Source of the DNA: an uncultured Candidatus Actinomarina sp.
Lineage (GTDB): Bacteria; Actinomycetota; Acidimicrobiia; Actinomarinales; Actinomarinaceae
Assembly: GCA_902634185.1 (NCBI GenBank)
Contig: CACPJC010000007.1
Coordinates: 1 to 34,408, forward strand
Direction of reading: 5' to 3'
Length of the DNA: 34,408 bases
Shown: positions 27,223-34,408 of the stretch, piece after piece
Layout of the letters: every line of letters starts with the position of its first letter
How positions within the stretch are numbered: the first letter of the stretch is position 1
Translations under genes and position numbers: made by a program
Notes under the pieces: model-generated
The model's database searches: none
What the model was told of the DNA's origin: nothing
What the model saw: only the letters and a program-made list of their open reading frames with translations

Positions 27223-27588
27223 ATGAAAGTAGCCTATGTTTTAAATACACCTAACGCTGCAAATTATAAAGTTGGAGAAATGATACTTCCTCAACTTGAA
27301 AGTGATAGTCATGGTGTTGATGTTGTAGGAATTTTCTTTTTTGATGATAATACAATGCTTCTTCAAAAAGGAAACCCTAAAGGCGAAAGACTTGCAAAAA
27401 TTGCTGCAGAAAAAGGCATGCTCTTAATGATGTGTGACCAATGTGCAAATCAAAGAGGTCTAGCTTCTGAAAACAGCGATGGTGGTTATCCACCTGAAGG
27501 TACAGTTGATGGAGTAGCAGTTGGTTGTTTCCCAGATCTCTATAGTGCATTATCAGGTAATATGCCTGATCAGGTCATTTCACTTTAA
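27223..27588 (+). CDS. DsrE-related small protein (SaoD-like by recall)
   Basis: GIFFFDDN (compare DsrE FFxxDGV), CDQCA.QRGL, GCFPDLY. Confidence 0.65.
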   Translation: MKVAYVLNTPNAANYKVGEMILPQLESDSHGVDVVGIFFFDDNTMLLQKGNPKGERLAKIAAEKGMLLMMCDQCANQRGLASENSDGGYPPEGTVDGVAVGCFPDLYSALSGNMPDQVISL

Positions 27589-27602
27589 CCTAAGAATTAC
27601 TT

Positions 27603-27634
27603 AAAACAAATTACCACTACAAACGGCAATTTGT
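27603..27634 (-). terminator. Hairpin and probable terminator of the aceA-aceB-SDR transcript
   Basis: Minus-strand ACAAAUUGCC-9 nt-GGUAAUUUGU, a 10-bp stem with one G-U, followed by UUU. The wobble pairs only on the minus strand. Confidence 0.5.
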
Positions 27635-27717
27635 CTAGGTTTTCGGTTATTGAAAATAAACAATTTTTTCACTCATTGAATTTAAAGGATGAAAGAATTA
27701 ATAGACTTTTGTTGTGA

Positions 27718-28566
27718 TTAAGCTTGTAGCCAGTCTTCAGGATTATCATCTACAAAAAAATCTGAAACTAAAGTTGCGTCTGGATCTACTGCATATTGAT
27801 CAAAATCTGTGATACCTTCTTCTTCAAGAACATCTTGGTCTAAAAAGAAGTTTCCGGTGCATGATGATGAATCTCTCTTCAAGACGGCGTATGCAGCATC
27901 AGCATATATAGAAGGTTTCCTTGATCCTTTTACAAGTTCTGCCCCAATTACATTCCTTACAGCAGCTGTATCTAATGAAGTTCTTGGCCATAGACAATTT
28001 GATGCGATTCCAAATTTACCAAGTTCTTCTGCTAATCCATGAGCTATCAATGTCATACCGTATTTTGCAGTTGTGTAAGCTAATGTCATTCCAAACCATT
28101 TTCTATCAAAGTTCAAAGGCGGGGAAAGTGTAAGGATGTGTGGGTTTTTTCCATTTTTTAAATGAGGAATTGTTTTTTGACTTAACAAGAACGTCCCTCT
28201 TACATTAATTCCATGCATTAAGTCATATCTTTTCATTGGAGTATTTACTGTATCAGTAAGATGAATGGCACTTGCATTATTTACACAAATATCTATTCCA
28301 CCAAACTTTTCAACAGCTTCATTGACGGCGCTTTCTACTTGTTCTTCAAATCTTATATCACAAACGATAGGCAAAGCTTTCCCACCAACTGACTCAATCT
28401 CTTCTGCGGCTGTATAAATTGTTCCAGGAAGCGTAGGATGAGGCTCAGTTGTTTTTGCGAGTATAGCAATGTTTGCTCCATCTTTACCTAGTGCTTTTGC
28501 TATTTCAAGGCCAACACCTCTTGACCCTCCACTCATAATTATTGTTTTATCTTTAAAAAATGACAT
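27718..28566 (-). CDS. Short-chain dehydrogenase/reductase, HSDL2-like
   Basis: SGGSRGVG, AKTTEPHPTLPGTIY, NNASAI, YTTAK. Confidence 0.9.
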   Translation of the reverse strand: MSFFKDKTIIMSGGSRGVGLEIAKALGKDGANIAILAKTTEPHPTLPGTIYTAAEEIESVGGKALPIVCDIRFEEQVESAVNEAVEKFGGIDICVNNASAIHLTDTVNTPMKRYDLMHGINVRGTFLLSQKTIPHLKNGKNPHILTLSPPLNFDRKWFGMTLAYTTAKYGMTLIAHGLAEELGKFGIASNCLWPRTSLDTAAVRNVIGAELVKGSRKPSIYADAAYAVLKRDSSSCTGNFFLDQDVLEEEGITDFDQYAVDPDATLVSDFFVDDNPEDWLQA

Positions 28567-28569
28567 AAT

Positions 28570-30141
28570 CTAATCTATCAAATTATAAGCTGGTAATGTT
28601 AAAAATTCTTCAAAATCTTCATCAAAAATAAGATCGCTAAATAATGTTACTGCTTCACTTAGCATTTCTGAATTTTCTTGAATTTCTTTTATTTTATTTA
28701 CTTCATCTTCGATTAGCTCGGTTACAAAACTTTTATCAATACTTTTGTTTACGTCTGTTTTTGCTTCATTCTTAATCCACTGCCATAATTGAGATCTAGA
28801 GATTTCAGCTGTTGCAGCATCCTCCATTAGATTAAATAATGCAGCGGCTCCCTGTCCCAAAAGCCATGATTGAACATACAAGATACCAACACGTATATTA
28901 GTTCTAATACCTTCTTCGGTAATTGTTGCTCCAGGGATATTAAAATCTTGAAGCATGTCCTCAGATATAACTGGTTCATTGGGTATAAAATCAATTTGGT
29001 TTTCCTTAGCGCCTAAGGAATCTTTGAATACATCTTTACATACTTGTACTAAATCTGGATGTGCTACCCAAGAGCCATCAAAACCCATAGTTACTTCACG
29101 TTCTTTATCTTTTTTCACTTGATCTATTGCCTTTTCTGTAATTTCAGGATCTCTTCTATTTGGTATAAACGCAGACATACCCCCTATTGCATGAGCACCT
29201 CGTTTGTGACAGCTCTGTACAAGCAATTCAGTGTATGCTTTCATAAATGGAACAGTCATAGTAATTTGTGATCTATCTGGAAAATTTATTTCTGGCAAGT
29301 CCCTATGTTTTTTGATCGCGCTAAAAATATAATCCCATCGGCCTGCATTCATTCCTAGAGAATGCTCTTTTAGTGAGTAAAGAATCTCCTCAATTTCAAA
29401 AGATGCTGATATTGTCTCTAGGAGTACAGTTGCCCGCAAAGTTCCTCTAGGCAAACTCAGTTCATCTTCAGAAAAAGAAAAGATATCATCCCAAAGTTGT
29501 GACTCTGAACTATTTTCAAGCTTTGGTATGTAAAAATATGTACCTATCCCATTTTCTAATCTCAATTTTGCATTGTGAAATGTATATAAAGCAAAATCTA
29601 AAAATGCTCCTGATATAGGGGCTCCATTTAGTAATACATTTTTGTCATCAAGGTGTAGGCCTCTTGGCCTTACAAAGAGACTCGTGTTACTTTCTGGGTT
29701 TAAAGAGTATGTTTTCTCATTTTTTGGATCCACAAATTCAAGGTCTCTAAGATTAGCATCAAGTAAATTGACTTGGCCATCCATAATATTTTTCCATGTA
29801 GGGGAAGTTGAATCTTCAAAATCTGCCATGAATACATCAGCTCCAGAATTCAATGCATTTATAATCATTTTTCTATCCACTGGTCCAGTAATTTCTACAT
29901 TTCTATTTGCCACATCTGCTGGGGGTGCTGTAACCTTCCAATTGTCTTCTCTTATTTTTTTGTCTTTTGGGAAAGAAAGTCTTTTACCAGATGAAATATC
30001 ATTTTGCATTTTTACCCTATTTTTTAGAATTTCTTGACGGGTATTCTCAAAAGTTAAACAGACTTTTTCTAGAAAACTAATAGCCTCATCCGTCAATATA
30101 TTTTGATATTGACTTTTTTTTTCAGAATTAATATCGATCAT
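28570..30141 (-). CDS. aceB: Malate synthase A
   Basis: VEITGPVDRKMIINALNSGA, DFED, VRPRGLHL, NAGRWDYIFS, LMEDAATAEISR. Confidence 0.97.
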   Translation of the reverse strand: MIDINSEKKSQYQNILTDEAISFLEKVCLTFENTRQEILKNRVKMQNDISSGKRLSFPKDKKIREDNWKVTAPPADVANRNVEITGPVDRKMIINALNSGADVFMADFEDSTSPTWKNIMDGQVNLLDANLRDLEFVDPKNEKTYSLNPESNTSLFVRPRGLHLDDKNVLLNGAPISGAFLDFALYTFHNAKLRLENGIGTYFYIPKLENSSESQLWDDIFSFSEDELSLPRGTLRATVLLETISASFEIEEILYSLKEHSLGMNAGRWDYIFSAIKKHRDLPEINFPDRSQITMTVPFMKAYTELLVQSCHKRGAHAIGGMSAFIPNRRDPEITEKAIDQVKKDKEREVTMGFDGSWVAHPDLVQVCKDVFKDSLGAKENQIDFIPNEPVISEDMLQDFNIPGATITEEGIRTNIRVGILYVQSWLLGQGAAALFNLMEDAATAEISRSQLWQWIKNEAKTDVNKSIDKSFVTELIEDEVNKIKEIQENSEMLSEAVTLFSDLIFDEDFEEFLTLPAYNLID

Positions 30142-31427
30142 TAAAACTGTTCTTCTTCAGTGGACCCCTCTAGTGCTAATGTTGAGGCATCTCCTCCAGA
30201 AATAATTGTTGATACTTTATCAAAATAACCAGCTCCAACTTCTCTCTGGTGTTTTACTGACGTAAACCCTTTTTCTTCAAGTGAGAATTCTTTCTCCTGA
30301 AGCTCGACATAAGATGACATATTTCCACCTTTGTAATTTGAAGCTAGTTCAAACATTGAAGTGTTTAAGGCATGAAACCCTGCCAATGTGATGAACTGAA
30401 ATTTGTAACCAAATGAATTTAATTGCTCTTGAAATGTTTCTATTTCTTTTTCATTTAAAGAGGCTTTCCAATTAAAAGATGGAGAACAATTATAAGCCAT
30501 CAGCTTGTTTGGATACTTGTCATGAATTGCATCTGCAAAATCCTTTGCAAAACCGAGGTCAGGTTTTCCAGTTTCACACCAAACCAAATCAGAATAAGGA
30601 GCATAAGAAAGTGCTCTTGAGATAGCTGCATCTGGACCATTGTCTACTCTGTAAAATCCTTCTGCTGTTCTTTCTCCAGTAACAAATTCTGCATCAATTT
30701 CATCGATGTCACTTGTGAGTAAATTTGCACCCAAAGCATCAGTTCTTGCAATGATTACAAGTGGAACACCAAGAGTATCGGCTGCTAGTCTAGCAGATGT
30801 TAATGTTCGAATATGCTGACTAGTAGGGACTAAAACTTTTCCACCCATATGTCCACATTTTTTTTCTGCGGCAAGCTGATCTTCAAAATGAACCGCGGCA
30901 ACACCAGCTTCAATGAATTTTTTAGTAAGTTCAAACACATTTAATGCTCCACCAAAACCTGCTTCTCCATCTGCAACAATTGGAACAATATAATTTGTAG
31001 AATCGATACCGTCAGTTTTATCAACTTGCTCAGCTCTTAATAAAGCATTATTTATTTTTTTGGCAAGGTTGGGTGCACTATTGCTTGGATATAATGATTG
31101 ATCAGGATAAGTTGTATCTCCAAGGTTTGAGTCAGCTGCAACCTGCCAACCACTTAAATAAATTGCTTCAAGCCCAGCCTTTGCCATCTGCACTGCTTGA
31201 TTGCCTGATAATGCGCCTAAAGCTGAAACCCACTCATCTTTACGGTTGAGTAAGTTCCATAAATTTGTTGAACCATTTTGAGACAGGGAATACTCAATTT
31301 GAATGGAATTTCTTAACGAAACAACATCTTCAGCAGAAAAGTTACGCTTTGTATCTTTCCACCTGGGGTTTGTTTCCCATTCTTCACTCAGTAAAGAGGG
31401 ATCCAAATGATTTTTATTCTCCATCAT
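30141..31427 (-). CDS. aceA: Isocitrate lyase
   Basis: [37 protein letters not shown]. Likely start is ATG 31427 or 31424, overlapping the upstream ORF stop. Confidence 0.98.
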
Positions 31428-31638
31428 AAAAACTTTCGTAAATGTCATCTTTTGTTTGTTTTAATTTTTTTGCAACATTTCGATAAGTTTGTACAATTCC
31501 TATTTTTTTCAAAAAGTTGTAAGGAGCCCTAAAAATTTTATCTTCAAAAGAAAGAAAATTATTCACAAATTTTGAAGAATTCTTTTCATCGTCTTTTTCG
31601 TAATATTCTTCATCGTAAAATGTATTCTCGTCTATCAT
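31414..31638 (-). CDS. Hypothetical 74-aa protein, first cistron of the aceAB operon
   Basis: SD-like GAAAGGA about 7 nt before the ATG; stop overlaps the aceA start. Confidence 0.65.
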
Positions 31639-31650
31639 TTTTTTCCTTTC

Positions 31651-31676
31651 AAAAAAAATCCGGGCTATTTGCCCGG
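31651..31676 (-). terminator. Intrinsic terminator (3:4 hairpin of the attenuator)
   Basis: CCGGGC-AAATA-GCCCGG-A-T8 on the minus strand, ending 12 nt before the next ATG. Confidence 0.9.
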
Positions 31677-31703
31677 TCCATCAAACGCATAAGACAGGGC
31701 TGA

Positions 31704-31748
31704 TTATGTATAAATCACCACTACTTTTGACGCGTTTAAATTTTGCAT
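31704..31748 (-). CDS. Putative leaderless attenuator leader peptide MQNLNASKVVVIYT
   Basis: ATG CAA AAT TTA AAC GCG TCA AAA GTA GTG GTG ATT TAT ACA TAA; the ATG is 6 nt after an extended -10. Confidence 0.7.
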   Translation of the reverse strand: MQNLNASKVVVIYT

Positions 31749-31754
31749 GAAAAC

Positions 31755-31763
31755 AATATAGCA
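31755..31763 (-). promoter_or_regulatory. Extended -10 promoter TGC-TATATT
   Basis: TGn-TAnnnT placed so that +1 falls on the A of ATG 31748, the same geometry as other gene starts in this window. Confidence 0.65.
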
Positions 31764-31798
31764 GTCATTCAAAAATAATGTATTCGATTTTTGTTAAA

Positions 31799-32863
31799 TT
31801 AATTCTGACTCGCAGCCACACTAGCAATTATTACAGTTAATGTGATAACCCCTGCTGCAGCGATAAGCACTTCGTTTCTAGTAATTTTAATCTTTGGCGC
31901 AGAACTCATCACCGAAGCAAATAGTAAAATTGCCGCAGATATTATAAGAGCAAATAAAGGTGCATAATCGTGAAAATTAATAAATACTTGAGAAATTAAA
32001 ACTGATATTACACCACCAAATAAAATTGCCCCCAACGGAATTACAATAGATCCAGTCACTCTATTTCTAATTACATTTGCCTCTTTCAGCTCATATAAGT
32101 CCAAACCTTTAGGTATACCAAGGACGATCACGATTGAAGCAATTATTGCTTGAGAGACAGTTGAGAACAATACAATCCTCCAAAAAGATCCAATTACTGG
32201 AATTAGATAGGTCGTAACGTCGTCTTCAAGTATTGCTTCAATTGTTACACCAATATCTGAAGTTATTACAAATCCAATTGAAGAACCAAATATTAAACCA
32301 AGGCCAACTCCAAGAAATAACGACTCCCTATCATTTGTAAGAATTCCAAAACCTTCATAATTTTTTTCAAGAATTTTTTTTAAGTTTATTGAACTTATTA
32401 CAGCAAAAAAAGTTGTAGTTAAAGCAATATTCAAAATGTACTGAGTAGGCGTATAGTTTGCAATTAAATTTAGAGTTTCAGACTCAAGAATTAGACCTTC
32501 ATAAAGATATGAACTTACAATAAACGCCTGAATAAACCCAGCAACGATTCCAAAAACTGTTCCGTACTGTAAAGCTCTAAAAATTTTAACTGAGAGTTGA
32601 GCTGGTGGGGGAATATCTTCATCAACATAACTAAGCACTGTTTCTACTGGAGCCTCTTCTACAACCGTTTCTACTGGAGCCTCTTCTACAACCGTTTCTA
32701 CTGGAGCAGAACTCACTGCTGGAGCTTCTCCGCTGGACCAACTTGCGAGAATTGCGTTAACATCAACTCCATTAGCTTGCGCTCTAGCCTGTGCTGAACG
32801 AGAAACCAATTCTTGAGGTACACCTGTATCTGTACTTATTTGTTCTACTAATTTTTCGTCCAT
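31799..32863 (-). CDS. Hypothetical multi-pass membrane protein at the end of the cytochrome oxidase operon
   Basis: Small soluble helical N-domain, acidic repeat linker, about seven hydrophobic segments; 16 nt downstream of ctaG. Confidence 0.75.
   Translation of the reverse strand: MDEKLVEQISTDTGVPQELVSRSAQARAQANGVDVNAILASWSSGEAPAVSSAPVETVVEEAPVETVVEEAPVETVLSYVDEDIPPPAQLSVKIFRALQYGTVFGIVAGFIQAFIVSSYLYEGLILESETLNLIANYTPTQYILNIALTTTFFAVISSINLKKILEKNYEGFGILTNDRESLFLGVGLGLIFGSSIGFVITSDIGVTIEAILEDDVTTYLIPVIGSFWRIVLFSTVSQAIIASIVIVLGIPKGLDLYELKEANVIRNRVTGSIVIPLGAILFGGVISVLISQVFINFHDYAPLFALIISAAILLFASVMSSAPKIKITRNEVLIAAAGVITLTVIIASVAASQN
32640..32707 (-). repeat. 27-bp perfect tandem repeat (about 2.5 copies) encoding APVETVVEE
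   Basis: Plus-strand GTTTCTACTGGAGCCTCTTCTACAACC at 32640 and 32667, partial copy at 32694. Confidence 0.95.
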
Positions 32864-32879
32864 AGGATTTATTTAAATT

Positions 32880-33656
32880 TTAGTCTGATGAGACATTTCT
32901 AACCACGTCATCAAAGGTTTTTTCTGTTTTGTACCATCTCATCCAAATTGTTAAAATTGATACCCAAAGAATTATTCCTCCACCTAATTTCAAAATTAAT
33001 CCACCAAGAACCTGGTCATTCAAAGTAGAAATATTAAATATGTTATCAATGCCAACATATGCTGAATATAGAGGTTCGGTACCAAATGCTAAGAAACTTG
33101 CAGGCACTGTCGGTAATAATGATTGTAAGAACAGGTATCCTATGCTTGCAGCCGAACTTAACCTTTTTACTTCATCGCTGAAACCAATAACCGGGACCCA
33201 CATGTTAAGTGATACAAGCAACATTATTGAATGTACAAAAAAATGGAATATATGATTTGTGACCATCAAGTTAACAACTGTACTCCAATGCATCCCTACC
33301 ATTACAAAATTAAATAAAAAGAAAGCAACTACAGGTTTACTAGTGATTTTAAGTAGATTTATAAAAGGTTTTATTGATATTAGTTTTTTCTGTGAACTGT
33401 GTAGACCAAGAAGAAGCAATGGGGGAGAAACAAGCGCCAGTACAAGATGCTCAACAGAGTGAACTGAAAATAAATACTTTTCTCCAATATCATGTATTGG
33501 CCAGTCTGTAAAGAGCCAGAGAATAAACAAGCCAGAATACCAAAATTTTCTTTTTGGTTTTTTTAATTCATTGTTATCGGTTGTGTATTCAAAAAATATA
33601 ACTAATGAGATAATAAGTGCCCATACGTCAAAATGTGGATGCCATTCAAGAATCAT
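32880..33656 (-). CDS. ctaG: Cytochrome c oxidase assembly protein (caa3-type CtaG)
   Basis: YLFSVHSVEHL...PPLLLLG, MHW, HFFVH, MWVPV, DQVLGGLILK; adjacent to cox subunits. Confidence 0.85.
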   Translation of the reverse strand: MILEWHPHFDVWALIISLVIFFEYTTDNNELKKPKRKFWYSGLFILWLFTDWPIHDIGEKYLFSVHSVEHLVLALVSPPLLLLGLHSSQKKLISIKPFINLLKITSKPVVAFFLFNFVMVGMHWSTVVNLMVTNHIFHFFVHSIMLLVSLNMWVPVIGFSDEVKRLSSAASIGYLFLQSLLPTVPASFLAFGTEPLYSAYVGIDNIFNISTLNDQVLGGLILKLGGGIILWVSILTIWMRWYKTEKTFDDVVRNVSSD

Positions 33657-33657
33657 G

Positions 33658-33957
33658 TTAAAAGAAATTACCTACAGCACGCTCAATCATTACAATTGCA
33701 AACAATATCAAAGCAAGAATCATTCCACCTGCGAAAAATTTATTTACCAAACTATTTTCATATCTTAAGTGCATAAACCAACCAACCACAATTACAAATT
33801 TCCCAACAGCTAAAATAATCAATAATGGTGGTGCAAGAGCGCCAACAATATCTTCTGTGTAATATAGTGCAACCTCTATTGCTGTAAGTATTGCTAGAAC
33901 AATTGCAATTTGTACATATTTTGTTGGGCTGGGGTGTTCTTTATGTGTTTCTGACAT
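33658..33957 (-). CDS. Cytochrome c oxidase subunit IV (prokaryotic)
   Basis: Y..IAIVLAILTAIEV, KF..VVGWFMHLRYE. The real start is ATG 33957, in a TAATG overlap with subunit III. Confidence 0.88.
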   Translation of the reverse strand: MSETHKEHPSPTKYVQIAIVLAILTAIEVALYYTEDIVGALAPPLLIILAVGKFVIVVGWFMHLRYENSLVNKFFAGGMILALILFAIVMIERAVGNFF

Positions 33958-34406
33958 TAGATAAGATAGACTACCGTAAACAACACAATCCAAACAATGT
34001 CAACAAAGTGCCAATAAAGTGCAATAAATTCAAGATTCATACCTTCATTTAAAGATAGGCCTTTTTGTCTTTGTCCAATGCCCCATAAAGCTAGTAACAA
34101 AACAACACCAATAAATACATGAAGTCCATGAAAGCCAGTCAAAACATAAAAAGTTGAACTAAAGATGTTGGTTGATAGTTCAAACCCCTTATGATAAAAC
34201 TCTGTAAACTCATAAATTTGACCAGCTAAAAAAACAGCACCAAGCATAGCTGTTGCAAGTAACCAAACCCTAGTTTTTTCTTGATCATTAGTCTCAAGGG
34301 CGTTGTGCGCGAGGACCATTGTTAATGAACTCATTAACAAGACGAAAGAACTGACAGATGTAAATGGAATATCGTAAACATCAGTTAATTTGATACCTGG
34401 AAAATC
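33957..34406 (-). CDS. ctaE: Cytochrome c oxidase subunit III (5' part outside the window)
   Basis: Frame open to the window edge; LLMSSLTM, FYVLTGFHGLHV, LYWHFVDIVW. Confidence 0.95.
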   Translation of the reverse strand, partial: DFPGIKLTDVYDIPFTSVSSFVLLMSSLTMVLAHNALETNDQEKTRVWLLATAMLGAVFLAGQIYEFTEFYHKGFELSTNIFSSTFYVLTGFHGLHVFIGVVLLLALWGIGQRQKGLSLNEGMNLEFIALYWHFVDIVWIVLFTVVYLI

Positions 34407-34408
34407 CC

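Follow-up and report, generated by a model that had tools for sequence, protein, structure and literature searches.

The minus strand of a 34,408-nucleotide (nt) stretch of a Candidatus Actinomarina genome (contig CACPJC010000007.1 of assembly GCA_902634185.1; hereafter the window, meaning the whole stretch that was analyzed) carries, just ahead of a small gene, orf74, and the isocitrate lyase and malate synthase genes aceA and aceB, a leader of ~98 nt that is likely to be a leaderless ribosome-mediated attenuator, in which scarcity of charged Val-tRNA would allow transcription to read through into orf74-aceA-aceB. The first-pass annotation of this DNA had proposed a leaderless Val-codon attenuator with the architecture of the trp and ilv attenuators gating aceA-aceB, and that proposal is now supported by conservation of each of its parts in all 30 copies, behind varied upstream genes, by folds computed under a modelled ribosome, and by four sister leaders in the same genome. 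The device appears to be a classical ribosome-mediated attenuator with new wiring. Its mechanism is known, its target is new, and its change of specificity can be traced.

Anatomy of the Leader and Proposed Mechanism

The assembly that contains the window (G000; 0.97 Mb in 16 contigs, 83% complete, 32.6% G+C) holds every annotated part of the leader in its place on the minus strand, as inspection of the sequence confirmed. An extended -10 promoter, TGCTATATT (TGn + TATATT, 31763-31755), ends 6 nt before the A of an ATG (31748-31746), a spacing that implies a leaderless transcript; there is no Shine-Dalgarno (SD)-like motif ahead of this ATG, and a consensus scan of 27500-34408 did not call the promoter, finding no -35 match. 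The ATG opens a short open reading frame (sORF) of 14 codons plus TAA, MQNLNASKVVVIYT (31748-31704, TAA at 31706-31704), whose codons 9-11 are the Val codons GTA GTG GTG (31724-31716), part of a GTA GTG GTG ATT run (31724-31713). The 5' strand of a protector helix, UUAAACGCGU (31739-31730), lies inside sORF codons 4-7, and its 3' strand, AUGCGUUUGA, lies at 31690-31681. The 5' strand of the antiterminator, GCCCUGUC (31700-31693), begins 3 nt past the sORF stop, and its G-C-C forms invariant columns in the leader alignments; the 3' strand, GACCGGGC (31678-31671), overlaps the 5' arm of the terminator. The Val codons can also pair with the GCCC of the antiterminator strand and would thereby serve as the anti-antiterminator.

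The intrinsic terminator (31676-31651) consists of CCGGGC-AAAUA-GCCCGG (31676-31660) followed by A and U8 (31658-31651), and it is the sole all-G-C hairpin that the consensus scan found on the minus strand of 27500-34408. From the U-tract to the ATG of orf74 (31638) there are 12 nt, GAAAGGAAAAAA, which include an SD-like AAGGA; the earlier statement that this distance leaves no room for a separate promoter held when checked on the sequence. One contig from an RNA library (run X8) carries A>T on the plus strand at window position 31667, in the terminator loop, with the stem intact.

We propose that the transcript begins with the A of the ATG at 31748 or a base beside it, as the position of the extended -10 element 6 nt upstream suggests, and that a 70S ribosome translates the 14-codon sORF. 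If the RNA is untranslated, the Val codons GUAGUGG and sORF codons 4-7 would pair past the stop codon, GCCCUGUC would be locked, and the terminator would form, ending transcription ~98 nt from its start. A ribosome that reaches the stop codon would cover GCCCUGUC, 3 nt downstream, again giving termination. When charged Val-tRNA is scarce, a ribosome stalled on GUA-GUG-GUG would mask the pairing partner of GCCCUGUC and leave GCCCUGUC free; the free strand would pair with GACCGGGC once this is made, no terminator would form, and RNA polymerase would proceed into orf74-aceA-aceB and, in the window genome, an oxidoreductase gene beyond. The net effect would be that valine limitation turns on isocitrate lyase and malate synthase.

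Distribution and Linkage to aceA-aceB

The window genome and 12 congeners have aceA genes 78-100% identical to that of the window, and all 13 share the same upstream arrangement, although in 6 of them the genes before the leader bear no relation to the cta cluster found there in the window. From these 13 leaders we built a covariance model (R1) and searched all 62 family genomes with it; 30 of them gave exactly one match each, at 81-129 bits. In all 30 the match is followed, 12-19 nt past the U-tract, by a small ORF and then by aceA, while the upstream genes vary between subgroups and the leaders are 57-83% identical among genomes. This recurrence before aceA in 30 of the 62 genomes indicates that the element is more than chance. 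The idea that the hairpin is a mere terminator of the cta cluster was rejected, as the leader goes with aceA into other neighborhoods.

Malate synthase occurs in 31 of the 62 genomes and adjoins aceA on the leader-bearing contig in 29. The three mismatches between leader and aceB all fall at contig ends: the leader-bearing contig of G078 (2,286 nt) breaks off before aceB, whereas the aceB contig of G058 stops 1,214 nt upstream of aceB and that of G073 begins inside aceB, so that neither of these two reaches as far as a leader. A second type of isocitrate lyase, ~55% identical and the only isocitrate lyase in other species, lies 5-15 nt after the same 354-amino acid (aa) membrane gene as is found ahead of the window leader; these loci (congener loci L019-L030) have no leader and no small ORF, and the genomes have no malate synthase. 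Both types of isocitrate lyase are present in 6 genomes. In the window subgroup, the cassette with the predicted attenuator occupies the exact site of the unregulated isocitrate lyase of other species. High-G+C relatives in the class carry aceB-aceA without the leader.

A pattern scan of public genomes, made with a loose pattern and saying nothing on absence outside the lineage, matched at least 117 stretches. Among the matches listed, 21 are leaders of this kind, 20 with aceA downstream and the other on a locus that ends 113 nt past the terminator, at the first aceA codons; the 11 listed leader records that name a genus all name Candidatus Actinomarina sp. A filter for the promoter-sORF arrangement found it missing from 95 of the matches listed, and one further listed match, in a Proteobacteria metagenome-assembled genome (L115), was set aside as a chance sORF rather than a leader.

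Conservation of the Leader

Alignment of the regions upstream of aceA, the check that the first-pass annotation had recommended, showed the sORF, the Val codons and the terminator to be kept in all 30 copies, which represent 26 distinct sequences. The ATG and the open frame are present in every copy with 13-15 codons, length differences being multiples of 3, while the N-terminal residues vary (MQNLN, MFKLN, MLILN, MKINN, MTNYN, MQKYN). A TAnnnT hexamer stands 5-7 nt before the ATG in 26/26 distinct copies, with TG two bases ahead in most. The stop codon abuts or overlaps a (G/U)GCC(C/U) strand, with GCCC 3 nt past the TAA in the window and 0-3 nt past it in the others, and the terminator stem is unchanged in all 26.

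Each copy has 3-5 Val among its 13-15 codons, compared with 6.4% Val genome-wide, and the sensing core is V-x-V-V or V-V-V throughout (30/30), in the forms K-V-V-V (window subgroup), V-V-Q-V-V-V (second subgroup), (V/A)-V-Q-V-V-S (third) and I-V-N-V-V-K (fourth). GTG-GTG is invariant both in the 13-row alignment and in the 30 copies, GTG being the rarest Val codon of the window genome (6.7% of its Val codons); the flanking Val codons change synonymously (GTT/GTC/GTA at codon 6, GTA/GTG/GTT at codon 9). The original proposal had named Val and Ile together as the sensed amino acids. Its Val half is borne out by the invariant core, whereas an Ile codon (ATT/ATC) after the Val run is confined to the window subgroup, so the conserved signal is Val rather than Val/Ile. 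ARAGORN finds 39 tRNAs in the window assembly (83% complete), of which the Val tRNAs are only tRNA-Val(UAC) and tRNA-Val(GAC), with no CAC; given this set, the GUG sensing codons may be read by wobble.

RNA Folding with a Modelled Ribosome

The unconstrained minimum free energy (MFE) fold of the window leader has -31.4 kcal/mol (z = -2.91; 2 of 200 shuffles were as good) and contains the terminator, the 10-bp UUAAACGCGU/AUGCGUUUGA helix and an inner helix of UGAUU with AAUCA; the GCCCUGUC strand is taken up in it by the Val codons GUAGUGG. We then folded 14 representative leaders with the bases under a modelled ribosome barred from pairing. When the ribosome sits on Val-Val and the RNA extends no farther than the terminator loop, GCCC pairs with the 5' arm of the terminator in all 14, giving an antiterminator of -8.5 to -13.9 kcal/mol; in the window leader, GCCCUGUC pairs with 31671-31678 at -11.9 kcal/mol. 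The terminator alone has -11.5 to -11.9 kcal/mol across the 14 leaders (-11.5 in the window). A ribosome placed at the stop codon leaves the terminator as the sole structure, and the free RNA forms protector plus terminator. The protector helix is found in every relative folded, with registers shifted between subgroups.

An Rfam 15 scan of 31300-32100 at E <= 10, which had been advised as a check for known riboswitches, returned 9 weak matches, all with E > 1 and none near its gathering score; the best was Leu_leader (RF00512) at 16.6 bits, compared with a gathering score of 50 (E = 1.3). On these results membership in a riboswitch, T-box or known leader family was rejected.

Sister Leaders in the Same Genome

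We scanned the whole window assembly for sites that combine a -10 hexamer, a start codon placed 4-9 nt beyond it, an ORF of 6-30 codons and a terminator. This gave ten distinct sORF candidates spread over nine terminator sites. Five of the sites, that of the Val leader before aceA among them, lie just upstream of a same-strand operon, and at these the codon run matches the operon. A branched-chain amino acid (BCAA) leader, MKKSVNLISLLVLVLM, with a LISLLVLVL run (G000:C10:~250-420, locus L062), precedes ilvB-ilvN-ilvC-leuA (ilvB at C10:424; NCBIfam equivalogs); its sORF, like those of the other sister leaders, appears to be leaderless, and its terminator is GCCUCCCC/GGGAGG plus U9. Judged by these features, it is the classical multivalent BCAA attenuator of the window genome, and valine limitation would thus be read at two operons, ilvBNC-leuA and aceA.

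An Ile leader, MINFIIII, followed by a terminator (G000:C1:46187-50300, minus strand, L063), stands before citramalate synthase (cimA; TIGR00977, 637 bits), after which come acetate-CoA ligase (acs; 1019 bits) and a hotdog thioesterase. MINFIIII probably senses Ile, as its codons predict, and one of the genes behind it belongs to central carbon metabolism, namely that for acetate activation. A Trp leader, MKNITSWNWWSTT, with a WNWW run (G000:C2:120796-120906, L064) precedes a TrpB-like gene (trpB2), as does MYKLNNWHWWRIHK in a second genome (G009:C4:28866-28975, L069). A Tyr/Phe leader, MKINTYFYFRAHI, with a YFYF run and a terminator (G000:C1:116916-120940, minus strand, L065) lies before DAHP synthase and prephenate dehydrogenase; two further ORFs of that operon (439 and 262 aa), taken by their N-terminal sequence only, are putatively EPSP synthase and shikimate dehydrogenase.

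These leaders suggest that the lineage uses the device routinely and with amino-acid specificity, and it is mainly because the sister leaders match their own operons that we take the aceA leader for a valine sensor rather than some generic hairpin. The other candidates of the scan were discarded: MLLLFHS, MVLKIYN and MDLIINCVIFN were taken on inspection as ordinary 3' terminators, with no same-strand gene just downstream, and MGPVYAGKLFVDFKEGETPN and MISKKVKHQINIV were set aside on the same grounds.

Relation to the Trp Leader

R1, although built on aceA leaders, also scores the Trp leaders of the window genome (48.2 bits) and of G009 (57.7 bits), and more weakly the Tyr/Phe leader (35.2 bits). 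The Val and Trp leaders have in common their promoter type, an M-x-K/N-L/I-N start, a GGUGG tract, a post-stop GUGCCC strand and the CCGGGC terminator, with pairwise identities of 0.53-0.71, and the Val leaders of the second subgroup are equally close to the Trp leaders and to the window subgroup. The core alignment score is reached by none of 2000 shuffles for 4 of the 5 pairs tested and by 29 of 2000 for the fifth.

The two leaders differ by one extra base before the sensing codons, which puts GTG-CAA-GTG-GTG in frame where the Trp leader has TGG-CAT-TGG-TGG; a 1-nt offset thus turns W-x-W-W into V-x-V-V, with aceA downstream in place of trpB2. Because the C-rich antiterminator strand has this one G-rich tract as its partner in both leaders, specificity could change with the switch left intact. 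Trp to Val is the direction of change that we infer.

Weighing the Proposed Attenuator Against Alternatives

Judged in silico, the leader has the parts expected of an attenuator of this class, namely an sORF with a cognate codon cluster, a terminator, the placement of the stop codon and an antiterminator. Several observations count against the assignment. The genes downstream encode isocitrate lyase and malate synthase A, where an attenuator of the class would head genes that make or charge the sensed amino acid; in our view this mismatch concerns the wiring and not the mechanism. In the Streptomyces coelicolor ilvB leader, mutation of the candidate regulatory codons is described as having no effect (PMC1262725), which implies that actinobacterial look-alikes of attenuators can lack function. 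The full-length RNA at equilibrium favors the terminator even with a stalled ribosome, so that read-through, like that of classical attenuators, must depend on kinetic trapping. Pairing with GCCC also requires the invariant GUGGUG, and the conservation of this tract alone is no proof of valine sensing.

The statistics of the helices are modest. The covariation test that the first-pass annotation had called for gave 84.6% of cells pairing in a fixed register (model-fitted alignment, 30 copies/26 distinct) as opposed to 34-49% when the partner is slid. Covariation itself was only modest, and we do not lean on it as main evidence: the score of 0.154 is barely above that of a +2 slide (0.145), and only 4 pairs change both sides. 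Protector-only folds have a median z of -1.67 (range -3.37 to -0.47) over 26 rows, one of which (L044) was mis-parsed from an ATG inside the promoter. In transcript collections, 20 of 23 listed sequencing runs contain the stretch, 12 of these recorded as RNA, and four RNA-library runs from four studies each yield one contig over the whole of 31200-32097 at >=99%; these contigs show no starts, ends or strand and may be DNA carry-over. Lastly, the idea that the shunt feeds pyruvate for valine has no obvious route, because no malic enzyme or phosphoenolpyruvate carboxykinase (PEPCK) was found. Malic enzyme (PF00390) was found in none of the six leader-bearing genomes searched (G000 and five others of 90-94% completeness), PEPCK_ATP in none of the five genomes searched and PEPCK_GTP not in the one searched, the window's own; other C4-to-C3 routes lay outside the search. 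These counts also speak against the earlier suggestion that Val/Ile serves as a proxy for a shortage of pyruvate or oxaloacetate.

Among alternative explanations, the one that survives best, which we still consider unlikely, retains a translated sORF and an attenuating switch and has the leader sense general translation speed or ribosome availability, GUG being kept only for C-rich pairing. Such a sensor would explain why GUGGUG pairs with GCCC in every fold, why the regulated genes are not valine genes, and why one subgroup makes do with only 3 Val codons; the tract is moreover common to the Trp leader in another frame, and RNA constraint alone could conserve it. It does not account for the extra Val codons kept outside the paired GUGGUG, with synonymous changes at codons 6 and 9, nor for the strict amino-acid matching of the four sister leaders, and a stall needs a limiting substrate, for which runs of a single codon family are the known way.

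A second alternative, which we regard as quite improbable, leaves the sORF untranslated and makes the leader a structured 5' element (riboswitch-like, protein-bound or acting as a trans small RNA) or an insulator terminator, with aceA expressed by read-through or from another promoter. The transcription start and the translation of the sORF are indeed deduced from sequence, the terminator in the window subgroup is also the first after the cta cluster, and attenuator RNAs can act in trans (as described in PMC6614838). This explanation is at odds with the preservation of ATG, frame and stop position in 30/30 copies with indels in threes, with a leader that accompanies aceA behind unrelated upstream genes, and with the 12 nt between U-tract and start codon, which hold no room for another promoter; nor is any Rfam family close (Leu_leader falls far below its gathering score) or any conserved core resembling a ligand pocket present beyond the helices.

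That a terminator, a short ORF and a -10-like hexamer merely fell together by chance in AT-rich DNA has some points in its favor (a 14-codon open frame has a probability of ~0.34 at 33% G+C, as estimated from composition; TAnnnT hexamers are common, and a promoter-like scan gave no excess over shuffles), but this explanation is already refuted by the recurrence of all parts in 30 diverged genomes, always before aceA. We therefore retain the valine-responsive attenuator as the preferred reading.

Downstream and Neighboring Genes

The first gene past the attenuator, orf74 (74 aa; 31638-31414, minus strand), is preceded by the SD-like AAGGA and overlaps the likely aceA start by ~14 nt; it matched no Pfam family. 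A counterpart of 28-74 aa (28-30 aa in the other subgroups) lies between leader and aceA in all 30 cassettes, with a conserved C terminus, TK(A/D/S)(D/E)(I/L)YES(F/L)Y(D/N)xE. Substitutions look conservative when read in the frame of the small ORF but radical in that of aceA, so that the small ORF is probably a real, translationally coupled gene. EttA-type control through the acidic N terminus of orf74, an idea taken from PMC11282234, was dropped: no EttA equivalog passed the cut-off in G000, the best match scoring 72.5 bits compared with a cut-off of 806.75.

The aceA gene is annotated at 31448-30141 on the minus strand (Pfam ICL, 9e-108; NCBIfam equivalog NF011645, 702 bits compared with a cut-off of 562), and its true start is probably the ATG at 31427 or 31424. 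The start of aceB, encoding malate synthase A (30141-28570, minus strand; TIGR01344, 672 bits compared with a cut-off of 594.5), overlaps the aceA stop, and aceB directly follows aceA in other subgroups too. An SDR oxidoreductase gene (28566-27718, minus strand) begins 4 nt past aceB and is probably co-transcribed with it in the window genome. The first-pass annotation had counted this gene in the operon; as a member of the conserved cassette it does not stand, since tblastn found none after aceB in the four loci of other subgroups examined (L066, L067, L068 and L070).

Upstream of the leader, the window has a 354-aa ORF and, further up, a caa3-type CtaG. The ORF (32863-31799, minus strand), directly after ctaG, encodes a predicted membrane protein of no Pfam or NCBIfam family and is conserved genus-wide at the end of the cta cluster.

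Metabolic Context

The fate of acetyl units, combustion or retention as biomass, is set by isocitrate lyase and malate synthase. With low confidence, we favor one of two purposes for the proposed valine-responsive attenuator: it may signal famine, with no protein involved, in a streamlined cell that scavenges amino acids, or it may serve to spare pyruvate. Valine may indicate how well the cell is supplied with scavenged amino acids, or pyruvate may be saved because the shunt takes over from anaplerotic reactions that consume it; alternatively, valine may be no more than what the Trp chassis, once shifted in frame, has to offer.

A recent preprint on Actinomarina (10.64898/2026.04.03.716425) reports branched-chain amino-acid ABC transporters in 82/84 genomes, isocitrate lyase in 84/84 and malate synthase in 20/84; the latter two counts fit the accessory cassette seen in our genomes. 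The same preprint reports citrate synthase and aconitase as absent from Actinomarina at KEGG Orthology (KO) thresholds. In the window assembly, Pfam finds an ORF of the citrate synthase family (318 bits; G000:C3:121778-122779) and two of the aconitase family (593 and 448 bits; C9:7076-8428 and C1:53068-54333), one of which may be LeuC, and an argument that the cell has no source of isocitrate was dropped on this account.

Comparison with Known Systems and Significance

As known so far, leader-peptide attenuation feeds back on the pathway by which the sensed amino acid is made or charged, the classical cases being the enterobacterial trpL, ilvGMEDA, ilvBN leaders, leuL, hisL and pheL. Like these, the Val leader has a short ORF in which cognate codons follow one another, predicted protector, antiterminator and terminator helices, a stop codon placed for masking, and a terminator just before the first gene. 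Unlike them, it appears to be leaderless, with the ATG presumably at +1, no SD and ~98 nt in total; its Val codons are themselves the predicted anti-antiterminator strand; its targets are isocitrate lyase and malate synthase rather than an amino-acid pathway; and it belongs to no enterobacterial leader family by sequence, as the Leu_leader score attests.

Closer in phylogeny, Seliverstov et al. (2005; PMC1262725) described candidate leader peptides before ilvB, trp, leuA, aro and cys genes of Corynebacterium, Mycobacterium and Streptomyces, and a three-hairpin model has been given for C. glutamicum ilvBNC (PMC11857589). Those leaders share phylum and kind of switch with the Val leader, the ilvB ones having Ile/Val/Leu runs that overlap terminators; they differ in controlling cognate biosynthetic operons, and PMC1262725 mentions neither isocitrate nor glyoxylate. 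The leaderless polycysteine short ORFs of mycobacteria (bioRxiv 10.1101/834739) are likewise first-cistron sORFs that sense one amino acid and attenuate downstream genes, but their targets are cysteine-related and the abstract names no intrinsic-terminator switch, whereas the Val leader has a canonical terminator/antiterminator pair. The nearest functional parallel is the glycine riboswitch on glcB (malate synthase) of SAR11 (PMC5069720), another streamlined, abundant marine heterotroph in which a glyoxylate-cycle enzyme is under an amino-acid-sensing cis RNA; the SAR11 element is a riboswitch for free glycine, while the ribosome on the Val leader would sense the charging of Val-tRNA, and the sequences are unrelated. 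In the literature searched, which included PMC2965389 and did not cover supplements or subscription journals, we found no leader peptide or attenuator on aceA or aceB and no attenuator of any kind in Actinomarina.

These comparisons lead to a broader proposal, on which we are evenly divided: that the complete shunt (isocitrate lyase plus malate synthase) is an accessory module in about half of Actinomarina species, always gated by Val-tRNA through a leaderless attenuator born by duplication of a Trp attenuator and a one-base frame shift (TGG-TGG read as GTG-GTG), and wired as a protein-free stand-in for a transcription factor, paralleling the SAR11 glycine riboswitch. If true, this would be an unusually clear change of attenuator specificity, with Trp and Val leaders sharing one G-rich tract in two frames, and the module would offer a compact part of ~98 nt, promoter included, that is predicted to respond to an amino acid.

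Actinomarina, a genus of streamlined marine Acidimicrobiia, are among the most abundant bacteria of the surface ocean, and their genomes of ~1 Mb leave little room for regulators. If the valine-responsive attenuator operates as proposed, a central carbon pathway in these cells would be tied to valine supply without a regulatory protein, and metatranscriptomes should show Actinomarina aceA and aceB rising together with signs of valine or amino-acid limitation. It would then be a second independent case, after SAR11, of a streamlined marine heterotroph that places the glyoxylate cycle on an amino-acid signal by means of a cis RNA.

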